Sequence record: SRR20825006_1197
Reading direction: 5' to 3' (one strand)
DNA: 26,963 nt
Made by a program: the position numbers and the translations under genes. This document shows, piece after piece, positions 6,427 through 26,963 of this stretch; position 1 is the first letter of the stretch, and every line of letters begins with the position of its first letter. Below the pieces are notes generated by a model. That model searched no databases. It was not told where the DNA came from and worked only from the letters and a program-made list of their open reading frames with translations.

Positions 6427-7663
6427 TCAGGAGTTCCTCCCATGCGAGTGACTGGCTACCGTCGGCGCCGATCAGAACGGGCCAAACCTTGCTGCTGGCT
6501 TGATGGTCATTGGGACCCAGTGTCAACGGTGCGCCCAAGCCGATGTCGAATTGTCCGAGTTGTTCCAAAGCGGCCGCGATGGATGAGCGACTGATTTCTC
6601 CTTTGATTGAGGTGACCGCCTTGACCAAGATTCGTCCGACGATGTAACCCTCCAGCGACACAAACGACAACGGGAGTTCAGGATCGTAATCTCGCATCGC
6701 GTCGCGGTATTCGCTGACCAGCGGCAGATCACTATCGAAATGAGGAACCACTTGGGTCGCGACAATTCCATTGGCTAGGTCGCCGAGTGATCGTTGCAGA
6801 GCATCAGCGCCCACGAACGAGACCGCTAGAAACTGAGGATTGAAATCATTCATGCGTGCCAAGCGAATCAGCTTTGAGCAGGGCTCGTACGTCCCGACCA
6901 TGATGACCGCTTTTGGTAAAGGCTGGTGCATCAGCAGATCAGCGAGTCCGTCTTCGACTTGAGATGTGTTTCGACGATAGCGACCGTGCGGAACGCTGGA
7001 GACTTTGACGGCTTGATGTCGTCTTATCGCGGCCAAGCCTCCAAAGAATCCGTCGTCGCCGTAACTGTCGTTTTGAGTGAAGAACCCAATCTCTTCAGGC
7101 TTGATGCCTTTTGCGACCAGGGCGTCAACCATCGCGGCGGTCTCTTCTGCGTAGCTGGCTCGGTAGTTGATGACGAACTCGACCGACTCTGTTTTTCTCA
7201 ATGCGCTGGCTCCCGTGAACGCACCAAAGAATGGTGTCTTTGTCTGCTGCGCGATTGGGATGGCGGTGATGGCGGTGGGGGTTCCGACATTACCGACGAC
7301 CGCCAGCACCTCGTGCTCATCGGTCAGTCGATGCATATTCGGAGCTGTGCGCGCCGGTTCGTATCCATCGTCGAGTGCGATGAGCTTTATCGTTTTGGAC
7401 GGAAGACGGTTTTTTGCCTTTGCCTCATCAAACGCGGCCAAGATTCCATGCCGCATGTTGATGCCAAGTTCTGCGGCCGGTCCGCTCAAAGCGGTCGACA
7501 TCCCAAATTTCAACAGCTGCGCATCAACCGGTGTCGCATCAAGCGATTTCGGTGCTGCTCCACTGGCTGACGGCGCGCTAACGCAAAGGACTGCGAAGAT
7601 GGTTGCCAGTGTTAAGTTCTGTTTGAGCGGAAGTGCTCGCGCAGTTGCCCCAATAGTCTTCAT
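6419..7663 (-). CDS. Periplasmic ligand-binding protein, type I (LivJ/branched-chain amino acid-binding-like)
   Basis: Signal peptide; motifs 'GMSTALSGPAAELG', 'LDDGYEPART', 'VGNVGTPT', 'RASYAEE', 'QNDSYGDDG', 'SLEGYI' typical of PBP1 LivJ-like proteins. Confidence 0.9.
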   Translation of the reverse strand: MKTIGATARALPLKQNLTLATIFAVLCVSAPSASGAAPKSLDATPVDAQLLKFGMSTALSGPAAELGINMRHGILAAFDEAKAKNRLPSKTIKLIALDDGYEPARTAPNMHRLTDEHEVLAVVGNVGTPTAITAIPIAQQTKTPFFGAFTGASALRKTESVEFVINYRASYAEETAAMVDALVAKGIKPEEIGFFTQNDSYGDDGFFGGLAAIRRHQAVKVSSVPHGRYRRNTSQVEDGLADLLMHQPLPKAVIMVGTYEPCSKLIRLARMNDFNPQFLAVSFVGADALQRSLGDLANGIVATQVVPHFDSDLPLVSEYRDAMRDYDPELPLSFVSLEGYIVGRILVKAVTSIKGEISRSSIAAALEQLGQFDIGLGAPLTLGPNDHQASSKVWPVLIGADGSQSLAWEELLSE

Positions 7664-8107
7664 GAAAGATTGCCCCCTTAAGTGAAAGACTCACAAGGAA
7701 CCTAGGTTTGGATTCTTTCGCACCACATTGGTGTTAGGTGAATCAATCCTGGGGAGCGGTATACCGAACGTGCTCGTGATGGTCGTGCCGAAAATGGAGG
7801 CGTTTCGGGCTTGGTTGGCTTCAAACATCGCCCGTCCAAAAATTGAGAGTCTCTCAAGTGATCGAACGCCGCGATTGCTGTGGGGCTGGATCTTCCGATT
7901 TTAAGGACAATGAACGGACAAAAGCACACATTGGTCAGCAACCGATTGGGGTGTTCGGTGTCGAATGCACCATTGCGATCGGATTGTGGCGATGCAGACG
8001 GATTGAGACTGTGGCGAGTCAAAGCGAAGTCATCGACATGCGACGAAGGCGGGGAAGCTGGCCATTGTGCCAGCCCCTATTTGCCGTTGTTGTGATACAA
8101 AGACGGC

Positions 8108-10744
8108 ATGAACGCCAACTCGCCTTCGACACCTGAGTCCCTCCCCCCCCGCCCTGCCACGGTCGAGCCTGATCTCGATCGAGACACGTTGGCGGAGGAG
8201 TATTTCGAACTGCTTGCTTACGAGCCGTATCCGGTTCAAGAGGAAGCGTTGCTGGCGTATTTCACGGGGAATACGCAGCGGACCGAAGGCGGTCCAGCCG
8301 CTCAGCATGGTGTGCTCGTGTGTGCGCCGACCGGAACCGGAAAAACGTTGATCGCCGAGGCTGCGGTCTATGAAGCGTTGCGCACCGGCAAACGGATGTA
8401 CTACACGACGCCCTTGATCGCTCTGACCGATCAAAAGCTCGACGAACTCAGAGAGTCGGCCGTGCGGTGGGGATTCTCGCCGGACCAAGTCGGTTTGGTG
8501 ACCGGCAACCGCAGCGTTAATCCAGACGCTCCAGTTTTAGTTGTCGTCGCCGAGATTCTGCTGAATCGTTTGCTCAATCCTGAAGCGTTTGAATTCGACG
8601 ATGTCACTTGCGTGGTGATGGACGAATTCCACTCGTTCAATGATTACGAACGCGGCGTGGTTTGGGAGCTCACGCTCGGGCTGTTACCCAAGCATGTTCG
8701 AACGTTGCTATTGAGTGCGACGGTTGGCAACTCGATGGCATTCACAAGTTGGTTGCGAAACGCCCACGGTCGAAATCTACAGTTGGTGCAAGGCACCGAA
8801 CGAAAGGTCCCGCTTCAGTACGAGTGGGTGGAAGACGACCTGCTGAACGAATTTTGCGAGAAGATCTCGGCGGGTGATGATGAGGAACGGCGGACCCCGG
8901 CACTGTTGTTTTGTTTCAGTCGATCGATGTGCTGGACCAATGCGGAAATGCTCAAAGGCAAATCGCTGATCAACAAAGCACGCCAGAAAGAATTGTCCGA
9001 TATTCTGAATGCATCTGACTTCACCAATGGTGTTGGACCCAAGCTCAAGCAAATTTTGATGCGAGGCGTTGGAGTTCACCACGCCGGGATTTTGCCTTGC
9101 TATCGCCGCATCGTCGAAGAGTTGTTTCAGAAGAAGCTGCTAAGTATTTGTGTTTGCACTGAAACGCTCGCGGCAGGAATCAACTTGCCAGCTCGTAGCG
9201 TGGTTTTGCCGAGTCTGCTGAAGGGGCCTCGAGACAAAAAGAAGTTGGTGGACATCGCATCGGCGCAGCAGATCTTTGGCCGTGCCGGTCGGCCTCAGTT
9301 TGATGATCGAGGTTACGTATTTGCCTTGGCCCATGAGGATGACGTCAAAATCAATCGATGGCGGCAAAAATACGATTCCATTCCGGAGGATACCAAGGAC
9401 CCGGGATTGTTGAAGGCGAAAAAGCAACTGAAGAAGAAAATGCCCAAACGTCGGGCGGGTGAATCGTATTGGACTCAGACACAGTTCGAGCAACTGCAGG
9501 TCGCTAAATCGGCGGATCTATCCAGTCGTGGAAAGGTTCCCTGGAGATTGCTTGCTTACTTATTGTCGAAAGATCAAAACGTTCAGCCGATTCGGGAGTT
9601 GGTGGGGCGCCGATTGATGACGCCTTCACAGATCGACGTGGCACAGAAGGATCTCAATCGGATGCTGATCACGATGTGGTCGGGCGGCTATATCGAGTTG
9701 CAGCCGCCGCCGCGGATTGCTCCCGAACGAAAGCCCACGCCAAAGGGAACCAAACCTGGGCAGCCAAAACCGGGGGCAAATGAGCCCGAGCCGGTCGCGA
9801 CCGGCGGATTGTTTGGTGAGTTGTTGGACGAAATGCGGGCGGCGGAACCTGAAGCGAAGCCCGAGCAATCAGCGGAAGAAAATCAGACGGTCGACGACGC
9901 GGAAGCTCTCGCCAAACGCGGTTATGAGCTCGAGGACTACCGGCCGGAAACGGCCAAGCCAACTGTGCGGCTGGAGCGCTTGGTTCAGCTAAAAAGTGTC
10001 AATCCATTGTTTGGCGTTTTCATGGCGGATCAGTTGGCGGACGCCGATGAACAAGAACGCATCGCGGCACTGGAAAGCATGCTGGAGGTGCCGGGGTCGG
10101 TCGCGAAATTTGCCCGCATGACATCCTACGACATCATCCCGCCAGGAGCATTGGCTCAAAACCGATTGGACGCGTTGCTGTTGCAGCGGGGGTTGGCAAC
10201 GATGGAAGAATTAGGGGGCGGCAAAGAGGAGGAAGAGGAAGAAGTGAAGGACCGTGGGTTTGGGCGAGTGATGTTCGAGGAACCTCGGGTGTGGCCACTC
10301 ACCATCGGCGAAAAACTACTTCGATTGTTTCGGGATGAATTCCCCAAGGTCGATGACGTGCGGGTTCGCCCGGTCTGGATCGTTGGCGAATTGCTTGAGT
10401 TCGGCGGTGACTTCAACAAGTACGTCACAGCGAGAAAGCTGCAAAAGGAAGAGGGCATTCTTTTCAGGCATTGCTTGCGGATGATTTTGCTATGCGACGA
10501 GATGGCAAATGTGCCTCCCAAGGGAACCACGGTGGAGACGTGGGAGGATTGGTTGGATGACATCGCGGACACGTTGACGGAAGCATGCCGGAAGATTGAC
10601 CCGCAAAGCACAGATGAAATACTGAGTCAGTCAGAGTCGCCCCTGACGGATGATTTGACCGGTGGTCGCCGCAACACCGGCAGCAAAAACACCAAGCCAT
10701 TGATCAGCGAATCAGCTGAGAATGAGGAACAATCGACACCATGA
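8108..10744 (+). CDS. Ski2/HelY-like superfamily II (DExH) helicase
   Basis: Walker A 'APTGTGKT', Ia 'TTPLIAL', II 'MDEFH', III 'LSAT', 'GVGVHHAG', V '[13 protein letters not shown]', VI '[12 protein letters not shown]'. Confidence 0.93.
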
Positions 10745-11838
10745 GTTGGGACTATCGACCGCTGCTGAGCGGCCAATCTCGAGATCCTTTTTCGTCCATG
10801 GCTCGCGGGGCTTTGTGGTGTGTCAGTGGATTCTACAACGTCGCCGCTCGACACCGTCGTCGCCAGTACGACAGCGGTAATCGTGAAACCTGCAACGCTG
10901 GGGTGCCGGTCATCAGCGTCGGCAACCTGACAACTGGCGGGACGGGAAAGACGCCCGTCGTCGCAGATTTGTGCCGTCGACTTCGTGCGATGGACTTTCG
11001 CGTGACAATCATCAGTCGTGGCTACGGTGCCAGCGATGGCCGAATGAACGATGAGGCGATGGAGCTTCAAGAACGCCTGCCCGATGTGCCACACGTGCAA
11101 CATCCCGACCGCGTCGAAGCCGCTCGTATCGCGGTGGAAGAGTTGGCTGCGGAAGTCTTGGTCATGGACGATGGGTTTCAACACCGACGTCTACAAAGAG
11201 ATTTGGACATCGTTGTCATCGATGCGACTTGCCCGTTTGGATACGGCCACGTTTTACCTCGTGGGACATTGCGTGAACCTCTCGACAGTGTCACTCGTGC
11301 GGATTGGGTTTTGATCACTCGGGTCGATCAAGTCGATCCTGAAGAAGTCCTGGCGATACGGTCGACGATCGCTCAACATGCTCCCGACTGCCCCGTGCTC
11401 GAAACCGAGCACCGCCCGTCGACGATTCAAAGTTCGGTTGGAGATTGGGAAGCAATTGAGGTCTTGATTGATCAACCAGTCGCATTGGTTTCAGCCATTG
11501 GCAATCCCGATGCGTTTGAGCAAACCGTTTTGGATTGCGGTGCGATCGTGGTCGATCATCTTCGACTGCCCGACCATGATTCATACGAGCGAGCGACTCG
11601 CGAAAAATTGCGTTCTTGGGTCACCAAGTTGAAAGGCGGCCCGCAACCGCCGCAACGTTTGCTGTGCACACACAAGGACGCTGTGAAATTGGCGACGGAT
11701 TCCATCGCCGGCGTGCCTTTGGGCTACATGCCCATCGAACTCGCTTATCGCACTTCCGAAGAACCGCTTCAATTGCGGTTGGAACTGTTGATGGGTGGCT
11801 CGGTGGAAAATCAATCGTCGCGAGACGATTCGGCGTGA
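10741..11838 (+). CDS. lpxK: Tetraacyldisaccharide 4'-kinase (lipid A 4'-kinase)
   Basis: '[16 protein letters not shown]', 'SRGYG', 'DE', '[17 protein letters not shown]', 'LPRGTLRE', 'IGNP', 'PDH', 'THKDAVK' are LpxK signatures. ATGA overlap with the helicase stop. Confidence 0.96.
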
Positions 11839-13028
11839 ATGGTCGCTGCCGAATCGGGTAGCCGTTTGATCTTGGGGCGACGCTGTTTCCGAACTTTTTC
11901 CGGAACCATTCCCCGCATCGCTTCCAATTTTCCGAAGCACAGCAATCGATCATGCGGTTCCAGCGTGCGTTTCAATCGCGGGTTCGGGATCACCGTCGTG
12001 CCCCGGTAGAGCGTCAGCACGTTGATGTCCAATTCTGGCAAACCGGATTCGTCAATGGTTTTGCCGACGTAGTCCGATCCATCGCGGACGTGCAGTTCAG
12101 TCACGCCGTATCCGCGGCTGACGGTCAAACGCTGGCGAACATCGACTTCGGGGAAGTCGACCTGGGCGGACATGTAATCAATGATCGCTCCCGCGATATC
12201 GAGCTTGGTTGCCGATTCAATGCCTTCCAAACCCGGTGAAGAATTGACTTCCATTACCTGCGGACCATTGGTCCCCTCGAGCATGTCGACGCCGGCAACT
12301 CGCAGGCCCATGATTTGAGCAGCCCGGACCGCAGTTTCGGCGTAGGTTTCATCCAAAACCACGGCTTCGGTTTGACCGCCACGGTGAACATTGCTGCGGA
12401 ACTCGTTGCCAACGGCAACACGACGCATCGCGGCGACGACGCGATCGCCAATCACAAATGCCCGAATGTCTTTGCCGCGGCTTTCGGCGACAAACTGTTG
12501 AACCAGAACGTTCTGTTTCGTGCTTTGCAGTGTCTCGATGATTGCTTCGGCGACCTTGACGTTTTCGGCCAGAATCACACCGACACCTTGGGTTCCTTCC
12601 AGCAATTTAATGATCACCGGAGATCCACCCACACGCTCGATTGCGGGAAGAATGTCTTTGCGATCGCGAACGAACGTCGTCTTCGGGATTCCAATTTGAT
12701 GTCGGGACAGAATTTGCAAACTACGAAGCTTGTCCCGCGAATTGCTGATGCCGGCCGACGAGTTGGCACAGAACACATCCATTTGCTCGAATTGCCGGAC
12801 GACGGCGGTACCGAAGTAAGTGATCGATGCACCGATACGAGGAAGCACGCCGTCGTAGTCGCTGAGCTGCTTGCTGCGATAGTACAGATCGGGTTCACCT
12901 TCGGCCAAGTCGATAGCGAACTTCAGCGTGTTGAGAACTTTGGCTTTGATGCCGCGTTGTTCGGCAGCTTCCACCAATCGTCGTGTGCTGTAACAACGTG
13001 GCGAACATGACAGGATGGCAAGTTTCAA
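11811..13028 (-). CDS. rimK: RimK-family alpha-L-glutamate ligase (ATP-grasp) with C-terminal TrkA-C/RCK_C domain
   Basis: '[10 protein letters not shown]', '[11 protein letters not shown]', '[12 protein letters not shown]', '[11 protein letters not shown]', 'FRSNVHRGG', '[12 protein letters not shown]'. Extra ~110 aa '[22 protein letters not shown]...VLTLYRG...PNP...[11 protein letters not shown]' is RCK_C-like. TTG start. Confidence 0.93.
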
Positions 13029-13154
13029 GGGTTTTCTCTCAGGAAGCTGCGAGTTGCTGAAGTTGGGCCACAGGACCCGGCACCGGATGCATCCGATGCG
13101 AGTGCAGAGGCAGTGTCTATCTTTGACCGAGTGAGACGGTCACGTTATGGCGAT

Positions 13155-13688
13155 TCAGTTCAATGGTGGTTCCGTCCCATTGGGACGTTTGCGTCTTCTG
13201 CGGCCAGCCAAAAACGATGCGGCGGAATCGACCAAGAATCGATTTCGAATTGCTTCGCGGCCCACCAACATACGAAAACCCATCGAGTCACGATTGGCGA
13301 GAGTCAAATCCACCATCACTCTGCGTCGTAAGATTTCCAGTGCGGTGCGAATCACGATTCGTTCGCTGACGTTGCCGTTGCTGCTGCGGACATGCCGACG
13401 TTCCAAAATCGGCACGTCGGCTTCGATATGCAGGTCGTCACGGCGCTGGACGGGGTGAATGGAGAAGCGAACACGCTCCACATCGTTCTCGAAATACGTT
13501 TCCACATCAAACGCGTGCAGCGAACTGGATCGTGCACCCGTGTCGATTTTGGCTTTGACGTGCCGAACTTTTAACTCTGGCAATCCAACCCACTCACGCC
13601 ACCCAATTACGACCAACGGGTCTGTTGGCAGTAATTTCGAGCCGGTGAATTCCGTTTCAGGCTGATGAGGGCTAGGATCGTTTGTCAT
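13155..13688 (-). CDS. RimK-associated retropepsin-like protease (RimB-like; often annotated ATP-dependent zinc protease)
   Basis: 'IGWREWVGLPEL', 'AKIDTGARSSSLHA', 'VRSSNG', 'RDSMGFRMLVGREAI'. Lies directly upstream of rimK. ATG at 13688 is preferred over the ORF start at 13763. Confidence 0.88.
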   Translation of the reverse strand: MTNDPSPHQPETEFTGSKLLPTDPLVVIGWREWVGLPELKVRHVKAKIDTGARSSSLHAFDVETYFENDVERVRFSIHPVQRRDDLHIEADVPILERRHVRSSNGNVSERIVIRTALEILRRRVMVDLTLANRDSMGFRMLVGREAIRNRFLVDSAASFLAGRRRRKRPNGTEPPLN

Positions 13689-13988
13689 TGGCCATCGTTG
13701 GTGGGTAGGATCGCGAATGGCTGGTCGAATCAGTCGTGCGTGACAACCTGAACCGTCAGTCATTCAGCGGTGGGCTCTCCATCGATTGAGCGAACACGAT
13801 GAGCGATGGGATGCATGCAGATTGACGATTGAGAGTGCGAAACGTCAAGCGGATCAAAAAACTTTGGCGGCGATCGCGTCTGGGCATCAGACACATTGTG
13901 ACCGATTCGCTATACTCCGAGGGCGTTTTATTCTGATTGTTTGCCGGAAATGTTTTCCGCCCATTGCCCTGCCCCTGGAGTTGAATGA

Positions 13989-17505: not shown

Positions 17506-18551
17506 GTTCACCGATGCAATCGCCTGCCTACTCTGCAACCTTTCGCGTGTCTGAATGGATGCGAAGTTGGTCGTCCATCGGTTGTTTGTTGCTCGTAGTA
17601 GGGACGGGCTGCTCACAAAAACCGGCAGACTCATCTGGCAATGAATCGAATGATTCGATTCGCAGTGTTTCGGTTCAGCTGAATTGGTACCCCGAAGTCG
17701 AGCACGGCGGCGTCTATCAATCAGTCGTCGATGGCACCTACGGGTCGCTGGGGCTCAACGTTGATATTCAGCCAGGTGGTCGAGCAACCCCGGTCGCATC
17801 CGAGCTGGCTATGGGACGCAGCCAGTTTGCGATCACCAATGCGGACGATGTGGTTTTGTTTCGAGCTCAAGGTGCCGACGTGGTTGCCGTCATGGCGGCT
17901 GTTCAAGACCACCCACGATGCATCCTCGTGCGAGCGGATAGTGGTGTCGAAAGCTTGGAGAACTTGTCGGGTTTGACGCTACAACGCCAAGCGGGCCGCG
18001 CGTACCTCACGTTTCTCGAAAAACGTGGCTATTTGAAGGACGTTCGCCAAGTGCCCTATCACAACAGCATCGCGGCGATGGTGACCGATCCGAAAATTGC
18101 GGTGCAAGCCTACAGCGTGGCGGAACCGTTGATCGCAGAACAGCAAGGCCTAGAAGTTCGCACGTTGATGGTTAGCGAGTTGGGGTGGAATCCTTATTCG
18201 AGCGTCTTGGTGACGACCGGCGATATGATTCGAGAATCTCCCGAGGTTGTTCACGCGATGGTGGAGGGAACCGTCGCGGGTTGGAAAAAATTCCTGGATT
18301 CACCCGCACAGGCGAACGCCGCGATTCTCGATGCGAACAAACATGGAATGACCGAAGAGGCATTGCGGTTCGGAGCCGAACAGATGGTTCCGCTCGCAAT
18401 GCCGGGTGGAAACAGCAACGAGGTCGGCATGATGACCGACACTCGATGGCAAGAATTGGTCGATCAGATGATCGAACTGGAGTTAGTCAACGCGGACGTT
18501 GTGAAAGCGGAAGACTGCTTCACGACAGAATTTTTATCTGCTGAGATGTGA
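17502..18551 (+). CDS. ABC substrate-binding lipoprotein, NMT1/THI5-like
   Basis: Lipobox-like 'LLVVGTGC'; 'VQLNWYPEVEHGGVYQ', 'DIQPGG', 'AAVQDHP', 'GWNPYSSVL'. True start may be ATG 17514 or 17559. Confidence 0.88.
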   Translation: MSSPMQSPAYSATFRVSEWMRSWSSIGCLLLVVGTGCSQKPADSSGNESNDSIRSVSVQLNWYPEVEHGGVYQSVVDGTYGSLGLNVDIQPGGRATPVASELAMGRSQFAITNADDVVLFRAQGADVVAVMAAVQDHPRCILVRADSGVESLENLSGLTLQRQAGRAYLTFLEKRGYLKDVRQVPYHNSIAAMVTDPKIAVQAYSVAEPLIAEQQGLEVRTLMVSELGWNPYSSVLVTTGDMIRESPEVVHAMVEGTVAGWKKFLDSPAQANAAILDANKHGMTEEALRFGAEQMVPLAMPGGNSNEVGMMTDTRWQELVDQMIELELVNADVVKAEDCFTTEFLSAEM

Positions 18552-18589
18552 GTCCGCTTTTCGATCTGCCCAACTTCGTGCAGTGCTGT

Positions 18590-19591
18590 TCAAGCAGCCT
18601 GCGAGGTCGACGCTGTTGAAGCTGTAATTGCTTGCATCGCTTTTTCACGCTTCTTCGCCAAACGCCGAGCGATCTTCTCGGGAGGCTTGCGCCAGCGTCG
18701 ATGCAACCACCAGTATTGTTCGGGCGCCAAGTCGATCATCGATTCAAGTTGTTCGTTGTACCATTCGGTCAGTTGGCCGACTGATTGTCCATTCTCTGAA
18801 CCTGTGGCGGGGTCCACGAGGCCCAGCAGTCCCGATTCAAACTGCATCGGTTTGCCATCAACACGGCGTGTGTACACACTCAACATTGGTGCGCTCGCGG
18901 TCAGTGAAAACAGAGCAAGAGCCTTGTGGCATGATGCGGGGACGCCACAGAATTCGGTCCAAAGCCCTTTTTCGCCGGCGTGTTGATCTCCCAAAAGGGA
19001 AAGCATGCCGCCTTCGCTCAAGTGCTTTTCGACGATTGGGGCACAGCCGATTTTATCGACCATGCTTTGGCCCTTCGCACTGCGAAAGTCCTCGACCCAA
19101 TGGTGTAGATGTTGATTGTCCAGACGCCGGGCGATGGTCAGCGTGCCGACTCCCATCACACCCATGGTGTAACCACCAACTTCGAAGTTACCGAAGTGGC
19201 CGGTCACATAGACCGAAGGGCGATCGCTCAACATGTATTGCAACATCGTCCGGTTGCCATGGAAACGCACGTGTCGGTGCCAATTGCTGCGATGCAATCG
19301 TCGCTGAGCCCAGGCGACTTCGCAAACCATCAGCATCAAGTGATGCCACATTGCGAAGGTCAATTCTTTTTGCTTCCGCTGGGGCAGGTTGGGGAAAATC
19401 TTTGCCAGCGTCGTTTGAATGACCTGTTTTCGAACGGGCAGCGGACCGCTCAGGATCGCTGCCACGACACGGCAAAATCGATCGCCCATGTCCAATGGCA
19501 TGACTTGGATTGACGCAACGATCAAACGCACCATCGCATAAGCAATCGCGTCGAGAGCTCGTTGACGCATCAGACGCAGACGCGATTTCAC
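18590..19591 (-). CDS. Lipid A late acyltransferase family (LpxL/HtrB-like)
   Basis: HX4E motif 'TGHFGNFE', 'RRLDN', 'LGDQHAG', 'FCG', C-terminal 'PEQYWWLHRRWR'. Confidence 0.9.
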   Translation of the reverse strand: MKSRLRLMRQRALDAIAYAMVRLIVASIQVMPLDMGDRFCRVVAAILSGPLPVRKQVIQTTLAKIFPNLPQRKQKELTFAMWHHLMLMVCEVAWAQRRLHRSNWHRHVRFHGNRTMLQYMLSDRPSVYVTGHFGNFEVGGYTMGVMGVGTLTIARRLDNQHLHHWVEDFRSAKGQSMVDKIGCAPIVEKHLSEGGMLSLLGDQHAGEKGLWTEFCGVPASCHKALALFSLTASAPMLSVYTRRVDGKPMQFESGLLGLVDPATGSENGQSVGQLTEWYNEQLESMIDLAPEQYWWLHRRWRKPPEKIARRLAKKREKAMQAITASTASTSQAA

Positions 19592-19718
19592 GGTTTCCTA
19601 CCCGGATTCATGACGTTGAGTGGTTTGGCTGGCGTTTCCTGTCCAGCTCGAATTTGCATCGCCGGGGTGGCGTTGTCCAGCAATTTTGACGCAATTCGCC
19701 ATGCGTCGCCAGATGAAT

Positions 19719-20393
19719 TCAACGTCCGCCGAGTACCGTTTTGGATAGAGGAACCATGGGGGCTCGGACCGTGGTTTCAATCACCAGGCGGTTTTCGTCG
19801 CGAAACTCGGTGACGTAACCCGTGATGGTCCAGCGATCATCGTTGGAATCTTCTTCGATTGCGCGTGATATCCGGTCGAGCATGAGGTTTTCGGTCACCA
19901 AGGTCATCGGCACCGCGATGGCTGCCGGAGTGATCGGCAAGTCAGGATCTTCCAGGTTGGTGGAGTCAAACGTTCCGATCCCACGACCAATCGGTTGCTT
20001 CTTTCCGAGCAGCGTTTCTTCTTCTTGATTGGGTTTGCGAGCCAACCCGTGCTGGACCAGTGTGTCCAAATTCTGTTTCCGAACCGCATCTGGTTGCTCG
20101 GGCAGAAAACGCCATCGATGGCCGCTGAGGACGAAGCGTCCCGTGACCGGTCCGACGCGGGTGCCTTCTCGCAAAATCACTCCCGCGGTCGTCAACGGAT
20201 CACCGGCATTCGCCGCACCATTGGACATGGGCGGCATCGTCTGGCGGTTGAAACTGGATTGCCCCGTCCCAACTGGATCCGCGGCGGACACTGCGACCAC
20301 GCCAAGACAAAGAACGAACGGAGCGGCCAGCATCACGTGGGTGGTGAGCTTGCCAGCGATCAAATTCCATTGCGTCAATTGTTTGTTAGGCAT
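19719..20393 (-). CDS. Hypothetical exported protein
   Basis: 224 aa with an N-terminal hydrophobic signal-like segment and a compact C-terminal domain 'ENLMLDRI...RWTITGYVTEFRDENRLVI'. Co-directional with its neighbours. Confidence 0.7.
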   Translation of the reverse strand: MPNKQLTQWNLIAGKLTTHVMLAAPFVLCLGVVAVSAADPVGTGQSSFNRQTMPPMSNGAANAGDPLTTAGVILREGTRVGPVTGRFVLSGHRWRFLPEQPDAVRKQNLDTLVQHGLARKPNQEEETLLGKKQPIGRGIGTFDSTNLEDPDLPITPAAIAVPMTLVTENLMLDRISRAIEEDSNDDRWTITGYVTEFRDENRLVIETTVRAPMVPLSKTVLGGR

Positions 20394-20464
20394 GGATCGA
20401 TCTCTTCACGCGAGGTGCAACGCTGTCATCAACGATGAATTCGTGATCATTCTCAGTGTGAGGG

Positions 20465-20746
20465 TCACTCTCGAGGCATCGCAATCGCGTGCAGGCTGAC
20501 CACGGTACCAACGGCGATCATCGCCAATCCCAACCAGCGTGGCGGGTGAACACGTTTGGTCGGTTTGGGGTGCACCTGCATCAGAAAATTGCTGAATGAA
20601 TCTTGTGCGACCACATTGGACTTCTTTGACATCTTCGCCATCGCTCGAGTCGTTGGTTCGTTAAGAACAAACGAGTCGACCATTCGAAATTGGACGCCCA
20701 GCAATATCAGCAGGACTCCGATCATGAAGTACCGATTTCGATTCAT
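20465..20746 (-). CDS. Small hypothetical membrane protein (two TM helices)
   Basis: 'MNRNRYFMIGVLLILLGVQF...PPRWLGLAMIAVGTVVSLHA'. Start uncertain; the ORF extends to 20770. Confidence 0.7.
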   Translation of the reverse strand: MNRNRYFMIGVLLILLGVQFRMVDSFVLNEPTTRAMAKMSKKSNVVAQDSFSNFLMQVHPKPTKRVHPPRWLGLAMIAVGTVVSLHAIAMPRE

Positions 20747-20917
20747 GTCCATTGCGATCATTCCCATCACGCGTGAAGCCTACGCTCTGAACTGAGCGCT
20801 GCTGGAAATCATCGACTTGGTCGGCGGTCGAGCTCGAACGATCCGACTCAGAATCACGTTGTCGTGAATGACACGAATGATGCAAGCGAATTCAATGAAG
20901 CGGTCGTGACGGTTGCA

Positions 20918-21208
20918 TCACTTGGCAAACAAACCATCGACCAACGAATGAACATTTTCTCGAAACCCCGTCAGGGTTGAGTCGGACAGCAATTCGGATC
21001 GATTGCTCTTCATGATCGCAGCAGCCAACGGTTTGTGCTCCTTCCAATCGTCCAGCGTGTAGTCGCGAATGTCGACGTAAACGTCTTGCAGATTGTTGCT
21101 GATCTTCGGAACCAGGAAAAATCCTTCTTCTCCACGTACCAGGTGGTAATGCATCGAACCGTACATCAGCACGGCCCCGGTCAACATTCCAAAGAAAAAA
21201 CGAGACAT
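20918..21208 (-). CDS. Small hypothetical protein with N-terminal membrane anchor
   Basis: 96 aa; 'MSRFFFGMLTGAVLMYGSMHYHLVR' anchor then 'YVDIRDYTLDDWKEH'. Purine-rich 'AGGAATGG' precedes the start on the minus strand. Confidence 0.75.
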   Translation of the reverse strand: MSRFFFGMLTGAVLMYGSMHYHLVRGEEGFFLVPKISNNLQDVYVDIRDYTLDDWKEHKPLAAAIMKSNRSELLSDSTLTGFRENVHSLVDGLFAK

Positions 21209-21319
21209 CCAACCATTCCTTGACCAACGTTTTCAGAAGCTCAGCCGCTCCCGCTTCCTTCATCGTTCGTCATCGAGTGTCAAAAAGCAAGGGGATCTGC
21301 TGGCGGTCGATGCGTGTGT

Positions 21320-22303
21320 TCAATCTTGTTGGGCGAAATCAACGACACGTTCCGTCACCCTATCAACGACTTTTTTCCTGTCTTCGCAAAGAATCGCGAC
21401 GTGGTCCAATTCGGGATAAAAATCCACGGTGGCCAAGTCATTCCATTGAACACCGGGCAACATTTCAAAGAATTGCTCGGCGTAGTTGTAAATCTCCAAC
21501 GCGCCGCCGGTGTAGATCATGTGCAGGCGGCACCCGCGATTTGCTAGCTGCTGAAACTCCACTTCCGCAGCTTCGCGAGAGGGATACTCACGCAAATCCG
21601 ATCCCATGGGCATGGTCGAGTATTCGGGGCCGGAAGAGTCGGGAAGCAAACGCAGCAACCAATTCATCGCTGAAATTTTTCCGATGACCCGCCGGCTCAG
21701 GCGTTTCCACGCGGCCGATGAGGCGAGTCGTGGCGCGTAATGATGTCGAATCCGATTCCACCGAAAGCGACGCGTGGGGTAGCCGCACGCATCCATCGTG
21801 ATGACGCCGGATACTCGCGAATCTTTTTGCGCGGCGTGAATCGAATCGTCCGCGCCAGAGCACAATCCGAAGAGGATGACCTTTTGAATCCCGTGTTGTT
21901 CTTCGAGCCAATCGATCGCTTCGCGAATTTCATCACTGGCTCGATCGATCGAACGACCGCTGGCCCCAACTGGCAAGCTTTCACCAATACCTGACAAGTC
22001 GAACCGGAACGATGCCACGCCGCGTCGGCCGAGTCGGCGTGCGATGTCAACGTGCAGTCGAAACGGTCCGGCGTTGTGTAACATTCCTGGGGTAACGAAG
22101 ATCACTGCCGTCTTGGCATCCACCGGATTGCTTGTTGGATGGAAAATGCCGACCAAATGGTGATGGCTGCCGAAGACGACTGCTTGTTCTGCAGCGGCAC
22201 GGTCAGTGTGATTGCGTCCGGTTTCATTCCGCTTTGACGGAACCAACGTAGGAACAATGGTGGAGCTGGCGAATGAAGTGGTGGGTACGTTGGTTGGATT
22301 CAT
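21320..22303 (-). CDS. Alpha/beta hydrolase with Cys nucleophile (exosortase-associated hydrolase 1-like; putative aminoacyltransferase)
   Basis: 'RFDLSGIGES', nucleophile elbow 'FGLCSGA' (about 21854-21868), C-terminal His in 'ELDHV'. ATGA overlap with the NRPS-like gene. Confidence 0.85.
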   Translation of the reverse strand: MNPTNVPTTSFASSTIVPTLVPSKRNETGRNHTDRAAAEQAVVFGSHHHLVGIFHPTSNPVDAKTAVIFVTPGMLHNAGPFRLHVDIARRLGRRGVASFRFDLSGIGESLPVGASGRSIDRASDEIREAIDWLEEQHGIQKVILFGLCSGADDSIHAAQKDSRVSGVITMDACGYPTRRFRWNRIRHHYAPRLASSAAWKRLSRRVIGKISAMNWLLRLLPDSSGPEYSTMPMGSDLREYPSREAAEVEFQQLANRGCRLHMIYTGGALEIYNYAEQFFEMLPGVQWNDLATVDFYPELDHVAILCEDRKKVVDRVTERVVDFAQQD

Positions 22304-25050
22304 GATTGCACCTCGATTGCACTGCCGCCATCGAGCTTGTCGACCAGGAGTTGTGTGATGTGCCGAATCGCACCGGGTGATGAGAACGCCGATTCGTTGA
22401 GCTCGGGACGGTCCCAGCCAATTTCGTCGTCCATTTGAATGACGGAGCCAGTGATCGATGAAGGCGAATCATCGATTCCGGGAACCTCATAGTCTTGGCT
22501 GAGCAGCAACGTGGTCGCGGGAGCATCCTGCGATTCATTCAGGTCCAATTTCAACTGACTCAATTGCCGGCGTACCACGTGATTCAGTCGTGTGCCGTAG
22601 GCTTGGTCGATCGAACTCGACTCTCGTGGTCGTGCAAAACGTACTTCGTTAGTGAGCGTTTTTGCGTGAAGTTGGTCGAGGTTTTGAACAAATGTCTCTC
22701 CACAAACAACGGGGTCCCAGAGCAGCCGGTGGTTGATCCCGGTAGCTGCCGAGCACGCCGCCAAGGTTGCTCCCAAACGGATCCCAATTAGAGAGACTGA
22801 ATCAAGCTCGTGTCGCTGACGCATCCAATTCGAGACATCGCGAATGTTTTTCATCATCACGTGCGGCGAGGCTTCCAGTGCGTTGCCGTGCGAGTTACCA
22901 GTTCCCGCGTAATCGAAACGCAGGACATCAAAGCCCTGTTGAGCCAAATGCACGGCAAGCTGCTGCAAATTTCGATAGCTACGCGCGTACTCATGGCCAT
23001 ACGCATGACACAGCACAACCGCTCGGTTCTGTCGTGTTTGTCGCGAGGGTGGCGAGTAGTGCACCGCGAAAAGATCATGTGCACCGCTTGGTAGAAAAAA
23101 CGCTTCCATGACTGGCAAACGATCCCGCTGAGATTGAATCGCTGCTGTCGCTTCGTCCGCTGTCTTTGATTCGTCGCCCAACATCGCTTGAATGTGACGA
23201 GCAGCGAGTTCAATCGTTGGGTTAGCAAAGAAATCTCGAACGGGAAGCTCCAATCCCAACTGGTTCTTGACCCGAGCAACCACCTGGGTCACCAACAATG
23301 AACTTCCGCCGAGCAGGAAAAAGTCGTCGTCAATTCCGATCTGCGGAACCTGCAGGACGGAGCTCCAGATCTCACACAGTTGTCGCTGCAAATCTGATTG
23401 AGGTTCAACGAGGCTTTCCTCGCGGGCCACGACGGCATGGCTGCTATCGGGAAGGCTTTCGCGATCAATTTTTCCGTTGATCGTTTTGGGGAACGATTCA
23501 ACAAAAACGAAACGTGTCGGCACCATGTAAGGCGGCAATTTCTCTCGCAGGTGCTTGGCAATTCGAGCAGCAGTTGCGGGGAGTTCGCTCGACGTTTCTT
23601 TGTTGAGGATGTTGGTAGGAAGTCTGTCTGCACCCAAGCCGATGTGCGCGAGCAATGTGGTTTGCCCATCCATTGATTCGGCGGTCACCAATGCCTCTTT
23701 GACCTCGGAGATCGAAGTCAGTGCGGCTTCGATTTCTCCGGGTTCAATGCGGTACGATCCAAGTTTGATCTGATGATCGACTCGGCCACCAAAGTCGATG
23801 TTGCCATCATCCATCCAGCGGGCGATGTCTCCGGTTCGGTACCAACGTTGTATTTCGCCGTGCGAACTCGGACGTTCAATGAAGACTGCGTGAGTCAGTT
23901 CTGGTCGATTGAGATAGCCGTCGGCCAATGCCGGACCACCGATGAACAGTTGCCCCGTTTCACCCACGGAGACTTCCGCCAAGTCTTTGTCGAAGATCGC
24001 CGCGGAATATCCGGGCAGAGGTTTTCCAATCGGCATGTTGGCACCGGCGAAGTCAGCTTCGGGTACGAATACTGTCGCGGTGACGGTGGCTTCCGTAGGT
24101 CCATAAGCGTTACACCACAAAACATCGTGATCGCAGATGGTTTGCCAACGTCGATAATGATCGACACTCACTTTTTCTCCCGTGACGACCATCAATCGGA
24201 GGCTCTTCGGAACACGAGAACCGGTGGCGACCATCAAATCAACCCATTGATGCCAATAGGCGGTTGCAAGGTGGACGGCAGTGATTCGGAGCGAGTCGAT
24301 GATGTGCGAAAGTTCATTGGCTGAATCGGCTCGTTCGAGCGGTCGCACCACGACGCAGCTACCGCACAACAATGGTGGGAATATTTCTTCGATCGCGATG
24401 TCAAAGGTGAGCGTTGAGAACTGCAGCGTCCGGTCACTCGCATGCAAGCGGTAGACTTCCGTGTCCGCTTCGCAATAGGTCGTCAGTGCAGCGTGATTGA
24501 TTAGCACGCCCTTGGGATTACCCGTCGATCCCGAGGTGTACATGACATAGGCGAGTTGCTCGCCAGTCAGTTTGAAATAGTCTTCTCGTACTGGGGCGGT
24601 GGACGAGTTCTCAGCACGGATCAGATCCGATGCTTCCAACCAGTTGAGAGTCCCGATCGAGTTTTCCGAGCTAGTCGAGGACTCATCGGCATCGAACAAC
24701 GAACGATATTTCGCGTGGCCAAACAGCGTTTTGATTTCAGCGTCTTCCAGCATGAAACGCAATCGCTCGGCCGGGTACTCTGGATCCAAAGGCACAAATG
24801 CCGCACCGGCCAGATGAATCCCCAGCATCGCAGCAATGGCGATGGGACTGCGGTCGACACACATTCCCACTCGATCACCCGGCAGAACGCCGGCGGTACG
24901 TAGTGACTCAGCGATGTGACAAGATTGCAATCGCAGTTCGCGGTAGGTCCACGAGCAATCGTCTTGCACAACCGCAACCCGATCTGGGGTGGATTCGCAT
25001 TGCTTCCAAAACAGATCAATGAATGGCGGGATCGATTCAATTGACTTCAT
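22300..25050 (-). CDS. NRPS-like protein: adenylation domain + PCP + alpha/beta-hydrolase-like domain; no condensation domain
   Basis: A1 'WTYREL', A3 'YVMYTSGSTGNPKG', A4 'FDIA', A5 'NAYGPTE', A7 'YRTGD', A8 'GRVDHQIKLGSYRIEPGEIE', A10 'NGKIDR'; PCP 'DDFFLLGGSSLL'; C-terminal 'RFDYAGTGNS...GIRLGA...LWDPV'. Confidence 0.95.
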   Translation of the reverse strand: MKSIESIPPFIDLFWKQCESTPDRVAVVQDDCSWTYRELRLQSCHIAESLRTAGVLPGDRVGMCVDRSPIAIAAMLGIHLAGAAFVPLDPEYPAERLRFMLEDAEIKTLFGHAKYRSLFDADESSTSSENSIGTLNWLEASDLIRAENSSTAPVREDYFKLTGEQLAYVMYTSGSTGNPKGVLINHAALTTYCEADTEVYRLHASDRTLQFSTLTFDIAIEEIFPPLLCGSCVVVRPLERADSANELSHIIDSLRITAVHLATAYWHQWVDLMVATGSRVPKSLRLMVVTGEKVSVDHYRRWQTICDHDVLWCNAYGPTEATVTATVFVPEADFAGANMPIGKPLPGYSAAIFDKDLAEVSVGETGQLFIGGPALADGYLNRPELTHAVFIERPSSHGEIQRWYRTGDIARWMDDGNIDFGGRVDHQIKLGSYRIEPGEIEAALTSISEVKEALVTAESMDGQTTLLAHIGLGADRLPTNILNKETSSELPATAARIAKHLREKLPPYMVPTRFVFVESFPKTINGKIDRESLPDSSHAVVAREESLVEPQSDLQRQLCEIWSSVLQVPQIGIDDDFFLLGGSSLLVTQVVARVKNQLGLELPVRDFFANPTIELAARHIQAMLGDESKTADEATAAIQSQRDRLPVMEAFFLPSGAHDLFAVHYSPPSRQTRQNRAVVLCHAYGHEYARSYRNLQQLAVHLAQQGFDVLRFDYAGTGNSHGNALEASPHVMMKNIRDVSNWMRQRHELDSVSLIGIRLGATLAACSAATGINHRLLWDPVVCGETFVQNLDQLHAKTLTNEVRFARPRESSSIDQAYGTRLNHVVRRQLSQLKLDLNESQDAPATTLLLSQDYEVPGIDDSPSSITGSVIQMDDEIGWDRPELNESAFSSPGAIRHITQLLVDKLDGGSAIEVQS

Positions 25051-26411
25051 GAGACCACCATTGATGAACCAAACGAGGTGACCGGCGATCCTGTGGATGG
25101 AATGAGTGTTGGCGTGGTTGCGGAAGGATTTGGAAACACTGTTTGCAAGCTTTGTCGAAACAGTTGCAAACCTTGTTGAAGTTGTTGTTCCGGGATGTTC
25201 AGGGCGGGCATGAACTTCAGGACTTCGTCATCGCTGCCACAGGACTCCAGCAGCAAGCCATTTTGAAATGCGGTGTCGATGACCTTGCGAGCCAGATCGC
25301 CACGGCGAACGTCCAGGCCCCAAATCATTCCTCGACCGCGAAGGTCCCAGTTCTCGCTTACGTGTTCCGAAACGATGGACGACAAGAATGCTTGAAGCGT
25401 GTTGCTGCGGACTTGGATGCCATCCACGAATGAGCCCTCATTCCAGTGGTTCAAGACCGCGTTGGCCGCAACGAAAGCTAGGTTGTTGCCTCGGAAAGTG
25501 CCAGTGTGTTGCCCCGGTTGCCATACATCGCACTCGGGGCGAATCATCACCAGCGACAGAGGTAGGCCGCCACCGATGGATTTCGAGAGACATATCAGGT
25601 CGGGCGATAAGCCGGCTTTTTCGAAGCTGAAGAACTCTCCCGTCCGGCCATTGCCAACTTGAATGTCGTCCACAATCAACAGCACATCGTGTTCGCGGCA
25701 TAGCGTTTGGACTCGTTGCAACCATGCATCACTGGCCACGTGAATCCCGCCTTCCCCTTGGATCGTCTCTAGCACGACCGCCGCGGGGAGCGGCATTCCG
25801 CTGCTACGGTCGGTCAGCATTTTTTCGAGCAAGATGGTCGTGTCGAAATCGCCAAGGTAGCCGTCGTACGGGAGAAAGCTGACGTTGTTGTGCGATCCGT
25901 AGTATTCGCTGTGGTAGGACTGGTTCCCTGTTAGTGACAAAGAGCCCAGCGAATGGCCGTGGTACGCATTGGTGAATGCGACCACATGAGAACGTTTGCG
26001 ATGTTGCTTTGCGAGCTTGATCGCCGCTTCCACCGCGTTTGTGCCCGTCGGGCCGGTGAACTGGATCTTGTAGTCCATGGAACGCGGTTTCAGGATCGTT
26101 TGCTCGAACCTGTCCAAGAACTGAGCTTTGGCCTCGGTCATCATGTCCAGCGAATGTTGGATCCCATCATGGGAGACGTAGTCCAACAAAGCTTGCTTCA
26201 CAGCCGGCGGATTGTGACCGTAGTTCAACGATCCAGCGCCGCAGAAGAAGTCGATGAACTGACGACCTTCCGCGGTCGTCAATGTCGAGCCTTTTGCGGT
26301 TTGAAAGACGCTTGGGAAGAGTCGGCAATAACCCCGCACCTCCGATTCCAAGCGTTCAACGGTGTTGGTTGCTGAATCTGAAATGGATGTTGAATGACTC
26401 AACCGAAACAC
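25047..26411 (-). CDS. ectB: Diaminobutyrate--2-oxoglutarate transaminase (EctB-type class III PLP aminotransferase)
   Basis: 'ESEVRGYCRLFP', 'IDFFCGAGSLNYGHN', 'QFTGPTGTNAVEAAIK', 'ETIQGEGG', 'DDIQVGNGRTG', PLP Lys in 'LSKSIGG', 'WQPGQHTGTFRGNN'. ATGA overlap with the NRPS start. Confidence 0.92.
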   Translation of the reverse strand: MFRLSHSTSISDSATNTVERLESEVRGYCRLFPSVFQTAKGSTLTTAEGRQFIDFFCGAGSLNYGHNPPAVKQALLDYVSHDGIQHSLDMMTEAKAQFLDRFEQTILKPRSMDYKIQFTGPTGTNAVEAAIKLAKQHRKRSHVVAFTNAYHGHSLGSLSLTGNQSYHSEYYGSHNNVSFLPYDGYLGDFDTTILLEKMLTDRSSGMPLPAAVVLETIQGEGGIHVASDAWLQRVQTLCREHDVLLIVDDIQVGNGRTGEFFSFEKAGLSPDLICLSKSIGGGLPLSLVMIRPECDVWQPGQHTGTFRGNNLAFVAANAVLNHWNEGSFVDGIQVRSNTLQAFLSSIVSEHVSENWDLRGRGMIWGLDVRRGDLARKVIDTAFQNGLLLESCGSDDEVLKFMPALNIPEQQLQQGLQLFRQSLQTVFPNPSATTPTLIPSTGSPVTSFGSSMVVS

Positions 26412-26571
26412 CTGCGATCAATGAAGAATTGCGAAGAACAAACTGGCATTGAAAGCTAGAACGCCACCCTCTGCCGAACGGATCTGGCCCCGTCAGCCAC
26501 GAAAGTTCTTTGTGGGGACTGGATGCCTTTGTCGGTTGTTCGGATTCTACCGAAGGTGTGGTTGGGAACGT

Positions 26572-26829
26572 TCAACCTTCCTCGGCTTGTTTTCGCCGGT
26601 ATTCCTTACGGTCGTTTTGGTATTGTTCCGGGGCAGGCAACGATTCGGCATTCGGGTCGGTGGAATCGAATAAACGTTGAAGGAACGGGCGGCACCAACC
26701 GCAACCTGTTCCGGCGCCAAAGCACCGTGACAGTTCGCTGACCCGCCGTGGTTTCTCCACCCGAATGAACTGCTCGACTTTTCGCCTCGGGACGTGGAAG
26801 CAAAGGCACAGGTTGTCGTCAGGTTTCAT
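26572..26829 (-). CDS. BFD-like [2Fe-2S]-binding protein
   Basis: C-X-C...C-X2-C pattern: 'LCLCFHV...GAGTGCGWC'. ATG 26829 is preferred over 26862. Confidence 0.85.
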   Translation of the reverse strand: MKPDDNLCLCFHVPRRKVEQFIRVEKPRRVSELSRCFGAGTGCGWCRPFLQRLFDSTDPNAESLPAPEQYQNDRKEYRRKQAEEG

Positions 26830-26888
26830 GAGAGAAATCGATGTGGAGGGGGAAGGCACCAAGTGATGCTATGAGCCAAGCCCTCGAA

Positions 26889-26963
26889 TTGAAACCCGTG
26901 TCTGCGAAATGTCGCCGCTCCGCGGCTTTGGGGGGGGCGTCCGGGACGTCGGGTTGAAACCCG
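26889..26963. repeat. Probable REP-like intergenic repeat element, truncated by the window end
   Basis: TTGAAACCCG at 26889-26898 and 26954-26963; hairpin CGGGT-TGAA-ACCCG at 26950-26963; GC-rich GTCGCCGCTCCGCGGCT at 26911-26927. Confidence 0.45.

Follow-up and report, generated by a model that had tools for sequence, protein, structure and literature searches.

A putative condensation-domain-free pathway for 2,4-diaminobutyrate encoded by three coupled genes in Rhodopirellula and related planctomycetes

The present work deals with a stretch of 26,963 nucleotides from sequence record SRR20825006_1197, hereafter called the window, and more precisely with three genes that follow one another head to tail on its minus strand (Table 1). 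They code for an EctB-type transaminase, for a 916-amino-acid protein in which an adenylation (A) domain and a carrier domain are followed by a domain with a hydrolase fold (h2), and for a separate alpha/beta hydrolase with a cysteine in the place of the nucleophile (CysH). As judged from sequence and genome comparison, this triad appears to be a dedicated pathway for L-2,4-diaminobutyrate (Dab), separate from those of ectoine, siderophores and peptide antibiotics. The reading that we tentatively favour, at somewhat less than even confidence, is that the triad acts as a unit resembling a nonribosomal peptide synthetase (NRPS) and devoid of condensation domain, in which Dab would be transferred without hydrolysis from Cys148 of CysH to an acceptor encoded elsewhere.

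The window is planctomycete DNA; a Rhodopirellula baltica record shares 98% identity with the 916-amino-acid protein, and the nearest genome (G001) has the entire neighbourhood of the triad in common with it. A preliminary description of the window had proposed that Dab is made, activated and held on a cysteine by these genes. The gene identities, the coupling to EctB, the A-domain pocket and the Cys/Asp/His residues of CysH all agree with that proposal as far as sequence goes, whereas its account of the carrier-fused hydrolase and its claim of uniqueness had to be corrected. The elements added here are a pseudo-enzyme with an arginine at its elbow, the fusion of the Arg and Cys parts in some relatives, the conserved order of the three genes, the co-occurrence of EctB and CysH at the genus level, and a nearly invariant substrate pocket.

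Identity, coupling and conservation of the three genes

The first gene scores 653.7 bits against the equivalog model TIGR02407 (ectoine_ectB; cut-off 552.2), which places its product in the ectoine EctB family, its length being counted from a GTG start while the alignment of its relatives begins at about residue 17. The product of the second gene contains AMP-binding, AMP-binding_C and PP-binding domains and a Hydrolase_4/Abhydrolase_1 tail according to Pfam, and both its A domain and its carrier domain score above the cut-offs of their respective models. For the third, alignment with an esterase of solved structure puts the cysteine of the motif GLCSG on the serine of GLSMG. The EctB, A-carrier and Cys-hydrolase identities first assigned to these genes are thereby borne out, and the junction sequences do contain the two ATGA overlaps by which they had been said to be joined.

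The absences that had been reported also hold. In Pfam scans of the 22 open reading frames (ORFs) of the window, no Condensation, PF00975 thioesterase, ectoine synthase or siderophore synthetase domain was detected, nor any exporter, the sole transporter resembling a binding-protein-dependent importer. With neither a Condensation domain nor a thioesterase of the PF00975 type, the A-carrier protein departs from a canonical NRPS module. Exosortase and polysaccharide genes were not detected in the window by these scans either, and an EctA-like acetyltransferase was found neither among the scanned ORFs nor in the flanks of the triad, no genome-wide search for EctA having been made.

The distribution of the triad was followed in a set of 121 Pirellulaceae genomes, consisting of one per genus and the nearest genome. 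A full-length orthologue of the A-carrier-h2 protein occurs in nine of them, and 8 further genomes hold the A-carrier part only, within large synthetases. As to whether the three genes occur together elsewhere, those for EctB, A-carrier-h2 and CysH are adjacent and in the same order in all nine orthologous loci, each from a different genus, and an all-against-all comparison of the flanks revealed no other gene family in more than two of the nine; the triad is self-contained. At the genus level, CysH is present in 11 of 23 genomes. Those with an EctB over the cut-off are precisely these 11, and the EctB gene always lies on the CysH contig, at a distance leaving a gap that fits the A-carrier gene. 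The remaining 12 genomes, mostly 93-100% complete, contain neither EctB nor CysH, and their local gene order is wholly different. Since the same order recurs in 9/9 loci of different genera and in 11/11 holders within the genus, the three-gene arrangement is not a matter of chance. Because related genomes are not independent of one another and the local order differs where the triad is missing, its presence pattern in the genus may reflect one or few events of gain or loss. In a sample of 401 genomes across the phylum, a close CysH was seen in the nearest genome only, with weaker relatives in other families.

An LpxL-like gene near the triad was considered as a possible partner comparable to AlmG, which belongs to the LpxL superfamily. 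This candidate was rejected: the gene is found in all 23 genus genomes, with or without the triad, and is therefore regarded as a housekeeping gene. In the triad-negative genomes, it was the only one to match window genes.

As regards the supply of Dab, the EctB orthologues exceed the TIGR02407 cut-off in all five triad genomes tested for it and in all 11 triad genomes of the genus, and in each of the five the EctB of the triad is the only one to do so. Ectoine synthase (EctC, PF06339) was found in none of these five genomes; however, 14 control genomes likewise gave none, so that the sensitivity of this search is unproven. This result agrees, for the genera concerned, with a survey from 2026 that covers the type strains of 163 planctomycetes and in which ectC is confined, within the Pirellulaceae, to Blastopirellula/Bremerella, Lignipirellula cremea and Stieleria varia (PMC13342039). 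The triad thus resembles the EctABC(+Ask_Ect) systems by an EctB of the same equivalog family and, in two genera, by a neighbouring gene of the aspartate kinase type, but differs from them by the coupling of this EctB to an A-carrier protein and by the lack of EctC just mentioned. More precisely, an aspartate kinase gene lies directly upstream of ectB in one genus (G080, L027 2409-3899; 245.7 bits against TIGR00657, cut-off 208.7), while in another an aspartate-kinase-like gene, under all cut-offs, directly follows that of CysH (G118, L023 5938-7749). These neighbours recall the specialised aspartokinase of ectoine clusters, Ask_Ect being mentioned for such clusters in the same survey (PMC13342039). 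In a third genome (G107), the gene directly after CysH codes for a HetI-like phosphopantetheinyl transferase. Both kinds of flanking genes fit the proposed pathway.

Turning to the substrate, the phosphopantetheine arm of the carrier is probably attached to Ser584, the second serine of its GGSS motif, which we take to be the attachment site by analogy with a GGxS motif; Ser583 and Ser584 are both unchanged in 121/121 relatives of the protein. The ten residues of the A-domain pocket read D-I-E-A-V-T-A-V-T-K, with Glu221 at code position 3, the positions being assigned by the GrsA convention. Among the same 121 relatives, which span 45-98% overall identity, this pocket is invariant except for I/V/L at position 5 and T/S at position 9. 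Besides, Glu occupies code position 3 in just 2 of the 70 other A domains of our comparison set. The spacing of the assigned positions matches the numbering printed for SulA3 in a review (PMC12042044), section 14 of which presents a single Glu at position 3 as the hallmark of a 'mode 1' of diamino-acid binding. According to the same text, this mode takes substrates from Dap to Lys, and it occurs both in Pls and PosA, which are homopolymer synthetases, and in modules of pyoverdine, sessilin, jessenipeptin and syringomycin (PMC12042044). The pocket therefore supports a diamino acid and, given the dedicated EctB, Dab is the likely substrate of the A domain.

Table 1. Positions of the triad, its domains and its predicted key residues in the window
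Feature	Position	Strand	Support
EctB-type L-2,4-diaminobutyrate:2-oxoglutarate transaminase, 454 aa from GTG start	25047..26411	-	TIGR02407, Aminotran_3
A-carrier-h2 gene, 916 aa	22300..25050	-	
Adenylation domain, residues 1-540	23431..25050	-	TIGR01733, 401.3 bits (cut-off 317.4)
Glu221, code position 3 of the pocket	24388..24390	-	
Peptidyl carrier domain, GGSS motif	23191..23382	-	PF00550, 61.4 bits (cut-off 20.8)
Ser584, probable phosphopantetheine attachment site	23299..23301	-	
Arg-elbow pseudo-hydrolase domain (h2), residues 640-916	22303..23133	-	TIGR03101 hydr2_PEP as best family match
Arg758, nucleophile elbow of h2	22777..22779	-	GIRLG motif
Cys-nucleophile alpha/beta hydrolase (CysH), 327 aa	21320..22303	-	TIGR03100 hydr1_PEP as best family match
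Cys148, predicted catalytic residue of CysH	21860..21862	-	codon checked
Asp171, predicted catalytic residue of CysH	21791..21793	-	codon checked
His301, predicted catalytic residue of CysH	21401..21403	-	codon checked
ATGA stop/start overlap, ectB / A-carrier gene	25047..25050	-	junction reads ...TCATGAA...
ATGA stop/start overlap, A-carrier gene / CysH	22300..22303	-	junction reads ...TCATGAA...

The Arg/Cys pair and its wider family

The second gene had been presented as coding for an A-carrier-hydrolase protein. Whereas the A and carrier parts of this assignment stand, the fused domain carries the motif GIRLG, with Arg758 instead of a serine or cysteine at the nucleophile elbow, for which reason it is not a hydrolase in the usual sense and is best regarded as a conserved pseudo-enzyme. 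In the AF2 model of h2 (pLDDT 86.8), this arginine sits between strand 113-118 and helix 120-127 (domain numbering), which corresponds to a canonical elbow. Of the 134 aligned domain rows obtained from 121 family members, 120 have an arginine there, 9 a gap and 5 a cysteine, the cysteines all lying in second domains of fused proteins; among 80 shorter or stand-alone relatives, the arginine recurs in 74 of 85 rows.

On its side, CysH (AF2 model, pLDDT 78.1) displays the residues expected of an active enzyme: across 154 aligned domain rows, from 150 representatives clustered at 50%, Cys148 is conserved in 151, Asp171 in 147 and His301 in 148. The two proteins are, in addition, found fused. In one genome (G029), the A-carrier protein and CysH form a single ORF of 1172 aa, similar fusions exist among family representatives (P0012, P0249, P0260), and two-domain Arg+Cys proteins of 445-472 aa occur as well. 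We therefore read h2 and CysH as one functional unit, made of a dead Arg partner and a predicted live Cys-Asp-His enzyme. Fold searches with both models returned only generic esterases and lipases and no specific function, DcsB, GrgF and the curacin thioesterase being ranked lower in the lists, and a sequence search of the PDB with CysH gave distant esterases only.

The closest named families are those of the exosortase-A system. The best family match of h2 is TIGR03101 (hydr2_PEP; E 8.7e-25, 87.7 bits) and that of CysH is TIGR03100 (hydr1_PEP; E 4.8e-25, 88.4 bits), both under the respective cut-offs of 202.75 and 168.45. All 30 sampled stand-alone relatives are likewise under the TIGR03101 cut-off, and all 27 sampled representatives of the wider family under that of TIGR03100. 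The Arg/Cys pair is a distant cousin of these uncharacterised hydrolase 2 and hydrolase 1 families, in other words as their sister and not as a member. The exosortase-A accessory cassette comprises an acyl-CoA ligase (TIGR03098), a carrier protein, a pyridoxal phosphate (PLP)-dependent decarboxylase (TIGR03099) and the two hydrolases, and no tested function for it was found in the literature. In the same way, the triad brings together a PLP enzyme, an adenylating enzyme, a carrier and two parts with a hydrolase fold, each of which best matches its own cassette model. It differs from the cassette in that it has a true amino-acid A domain and not one of the ligase family, a transaminase and not a decarboxylase, a carrier and an h2 domain fused to the A domain, and hydrolase scores well under the cut-offs.

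The claim that this architecture was undescribed can be kept in part. No published description of the triad, nor any tested function of the pair, was found in the main texts of the openly available literature that was covered, and the triad genes do not appear in the main text of the R. baltica stress-transcriptome paper. The pair is nevertheless not unique, since it belongs to a large family related to TIGR03101/TIGR03100, for which an exhaustive search yielded 352 representatives at E <=1e-30 and 3249 at E <=1e-10. A scan of species genomes gave 80 loci from Myxococcota, Gammaproteobacteria, Acidobacteriota, Gemmatimonadota and others, 63 of which contain an A or carrier domain; the following counts rest on the 51 to 54 of these loci where the CysH ORF was retained. 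The Arg domain is encoded directly upstream of CysH in 31 of 51 loci, fused to an A-carrier protein in 12 and stand-alone in 19, and an A or carrier domain lies within two ORFs upstream of CysH in 31 of 51. In 9 of 54, the two nearest sizeable ORFs downstream of CysH include a polysaccharide-type Pfam family.

A locus from another planctomycete family (L067 of G397, 6969-13855) encodes in a row a C-A-carrier protein, an Arg protein, a Cys protein, a stand-alone thioesterase and a sulfotransferase, the combination of the last two recalling the release that forms a terminal alkene. A second minimal cassette, found in Acidobacteriaceae and Elusimicrobia (L089, L090, L107), consists of an acyl-CoA dehydrogenase, an A-carrier-Arg-domain protein of 904-933 aa and CysH; it adjoins a polysaccharide deacetylase in L107, and a low-molecular-weight phosphatase, a porin and a sugar transferase in L090. 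Among the terminal A domains that precede the pair elsewhere, three recurrent pocket types appear, none with Glu at position 3. Because these pockets are quite different from that of the triad, the pair appears to be a general off-loading device, of which the Pirellulaceae triad would be the Dab-specific, single-module form.

Aside from these loci, in four representatives (P0302, P0324, P0376, P0384) the Cys-hydrolase fold forms the N-terminal domain of large polyketide synthases, with the architecture hydrolase-carrier-KS-AT-carrier or, in one case, hydrolase-ligase-carrier-KS-AT-...-aminotransferase.

Possible fates of the activated diaminobutyrate

According to the proposed mechanism, EctB would convert aspartate semialdehyde into Dab, which the A domain would activate as Dab-AMP and load onto the phosphopantetheine arm of the carrier to give Dab-S-carrier. 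The Arg-elbow domain, which occupies the usual site of a thioesterase, would recruit or complete the separately encoded CysH, whose Cys148 would then accept Dab as a thioester (Dab-S-Cys). In view of the cysteine at the nucleophile elbow and of the conserved Asp and His, such an intermediate can reasonably be assumed. Finally, CysH would pass Dab to a nucleophile other than water, namely the amine or hydroxyl of an acceptor encoded outside the operon, the candidates being a lipid, a glycan of the cell envelope or some common small metabolite. As hydrolysis of Dab-S-carrier would amount to a futile ATP sink, release would have to create a new bond, and three features of the family favour a transfer: the pair serves many different acyl or aminoacyl groups, its single-module relatives would be pointless without an acceptor, and some of them sit in polysaccharide loci.

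In this respect, the triad can be compared to the DltABCD and AlmEFG systems, in which stand-alone adenylation and carrier functions also load one amino acid, and whose target is an envelope polymer or lipid and not a peptide. The A domain of the triad is, however, far from DltA (242 bits against the equivalog TIGR01734, cut-off 559.85), neither an MBOAT protein nor DltD accompanies it, and the transfer enzyme would be a pair of cytoplasmic Cys hydrolase type, unlike that of both Dlt and Alm.

Several points weigh against a transfer to an outside acceptor. The flanks of the triad in the nine genera share no acceptor-related gene and contain no polysaccharide genes, and the conservation itself was observed in related genomes, which are non-independent samples. 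Across the wider family, the modules ahead of the pair have very different pockets, and the pair could be a mere two-part thioesterase. Moreover, a Dab thioester can cyclise through its own gamma-amine, so that intermolecular transfer would compete with lactam formation. As for Dab itself, pocket-based substrate calls are predictions, and the review has Dap, Orn and Lys sharing the mode with Glu at position 3 (PMC12042044). Because no acceptor-like gene is conserved next to the triad and activated Dab readily closes on itself, the formation of a lactam and the self-condensation of Dab both stay serious rivals.

In the first of these, which we regard as unlikely, the triad would be an ATP-driven Dab lactam synthase: the gamma-amine of Dab would attack its own thioester, on the carrier or on Cys148, and release free 3-amino-2-pyrrolidinone as a solute or building block. 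The conservation of three genes alone fits a product made from Dab only, the closure of a five-membered ring by activated Dab is chemically easy, and the dedicated EctB together with the aspartate-kinase-type neighbour in two genera suggests a flux towards Dab, as in ectoine clusters. Ring formation by release enzymes with a Cys nucleophile is also known from the SulM thioesterase of sulfazecin. On the other hand, the same Arg/Cys pair serves modules whose pockets are impossible for diamino acids, so that ring closure by a side-chain amine would not be its general chemistry; a spontaneous cyclisation would hardly require two conserved domains with a hydrolase fold; and we know of no role for 3-amino-2-pyrrolidinone in planctomycetes.

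The self-condensation of Dab, by an enzyme working like a polyhydroxyalkanoate (PHA) synthase or an iterative ligase, would lead to a Dab-Dab dipeptide, a diketopiperazine or oligo/poly-gamma-Dab, and we consider it quite unlikely. The self-contained nature of the triad agrees with it, genes for precursor supply would suit a bulk product, and CysH combines a hydrolase fold with Cys-Asp-His residues in the manner of PhaC, the triad of which is Cys-Asp-His. Yet the pair is not of the PhaC family, as h2 reaches only 15.9 bits against TIGR01836 (cut-off 365.3) and CysH has no PhaC match. Like Pls, PosA and the poly-Dab/Dap synthetases, the triad has a single diamino-acid A-carrier module with Glu at code position 3 (121/121), a type of pocket given as typical of cationic homopolymer synthetases such as Pls and PosA in the review (PMC12042044). 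Those enzymes end, however, in transmembrane helices and tandem C-like domains, of which the triad has neither, its A-carrier protein ending in a soluble fold of the Hydrolase_4 type; in a PDB search, PosA chains came well below other NRPS A domains. Besides, no exporter is conserved near the triad in the nine flanks, and the pair usually terminates multi-module lines, where polymerisation would make no sense.

It is improbable that the substrate is other than Dab, or that the pair is simply an editing or hydrolytic thioesterase next to an EctB serving, for instance, polyamine or diaminopropane supply. Substrate codes are predictive only, and the best match of the A-carrier region to a characterised family is the lysine-type MxcG, although at 427 bits against a cut-off of 2300. 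The translational coupling by two ATGA overlaps, the adjacency of the triad in the nine genera, the exact co-occurrence of EctB and CysH within the genus and the lack of a second over-cut-off EctB in the five genomes all argue against such a separation, and hydrolysis alone would be a futile cycle.

Least probable of all is a shuttle in which CysH would bring Dab to another carrier domain, belonging to an assembly line with genes at a different site of the genome. Precedents are SyrC (syringomycin) and CmaE (coronamic acid), Cys-elbow alpha/beta hydrolases that take an aminoacyl group from a carrier protein and, acting alone, pass it on to another carrier protein of their own cluster. CysH shares the Cys elbow with them, and strong Condensation-domain matches exist elsewhere in four of the five triad genomes tested (in G001, at a distance of about 420 kb from the triad and within a 3666-aa open frame). 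Unlike them, however, CysH has an Arg-elbow pseudo-enzyme as its partner, to which it is sometimes fused. The surroundings of the triad contain no second carrier, an assembly line accompanies it in none of the nine genera, and the pair elsewhere terminates lines instead of bridging them. The hand-over to a distant assembly line, which the preliminary description had considered, is further weakened by the fifth genome (G107, 99% complete), which has the triad and no strong Condensation domain, its only match being one of 32.9 bits in a 490-aa frame.

Other features of the window and biological significance

In the region 18000-26963, no Rfam match came close to significance. Scans for promoters and terminators gave site counts below those of shuffled controls. 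A 101-aa ORF (20465-20770, minus strand) encodes a small protein with two hydrophobic helices and no Pfam family; it is 100% identical in G001 and 97% in G532, whose neighbouring genes reach just 64-86%. Such conservation is unusually high for a small membrane protein that has no name. Further away, at 11811-13763 (minus strand), a RimK-type ATP-grasp ligase with a TrkA_C domain adjoins a putative ATP-dependent zinc protease (PF05618). At 8108-11838 (plus strand), a DEAD-box/DUF3516 helicase gene overlaps the start of lpxK by four bases, which represents an odd coupling between a helicase and lipid A kinase. Finally, an open frame of at least 1175 aa (2-3529, plus strand) without Pfam family runs off the start of the window.

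In its most far-reaching form, the transfer reading would make the Arg/Cys pair a new class of carrier-protein-dependent off-loader, able to make an amide or ester linkage with no condensation domain involved, and one that, in Rhodopirellula and its relatives, puts Dab on an envelope polymer or lipid. We hold this idea to be less likely than not; if true, the triad would be a planctomycete counterpart of D-alanylation or of lipid A glycylation, and the simplest model for the chemistry of the whole family of exosortase-type hydrolases 1 and 2.

More generally, the triad appears to provide a well-studied marine group with a Dab pathway, the product of which may modify the cell surface or else be a solute or a polymer. 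Genome-mining tools keyed to Condensation and thioesterase domains will miss or mislabel such systems. The release unit formed by a predicted live Cys enzyme and its dead Arg partner recurs at the ends of many peptide and polyketide assembly lines in several phyla, and its kin, the exosortase-A hydrolase 1 and 2 genes, have been catalogued by association, without chemistry. As it involves one substrate and three genes, the triad probably offers the easiest access to the chemistry of this pair.

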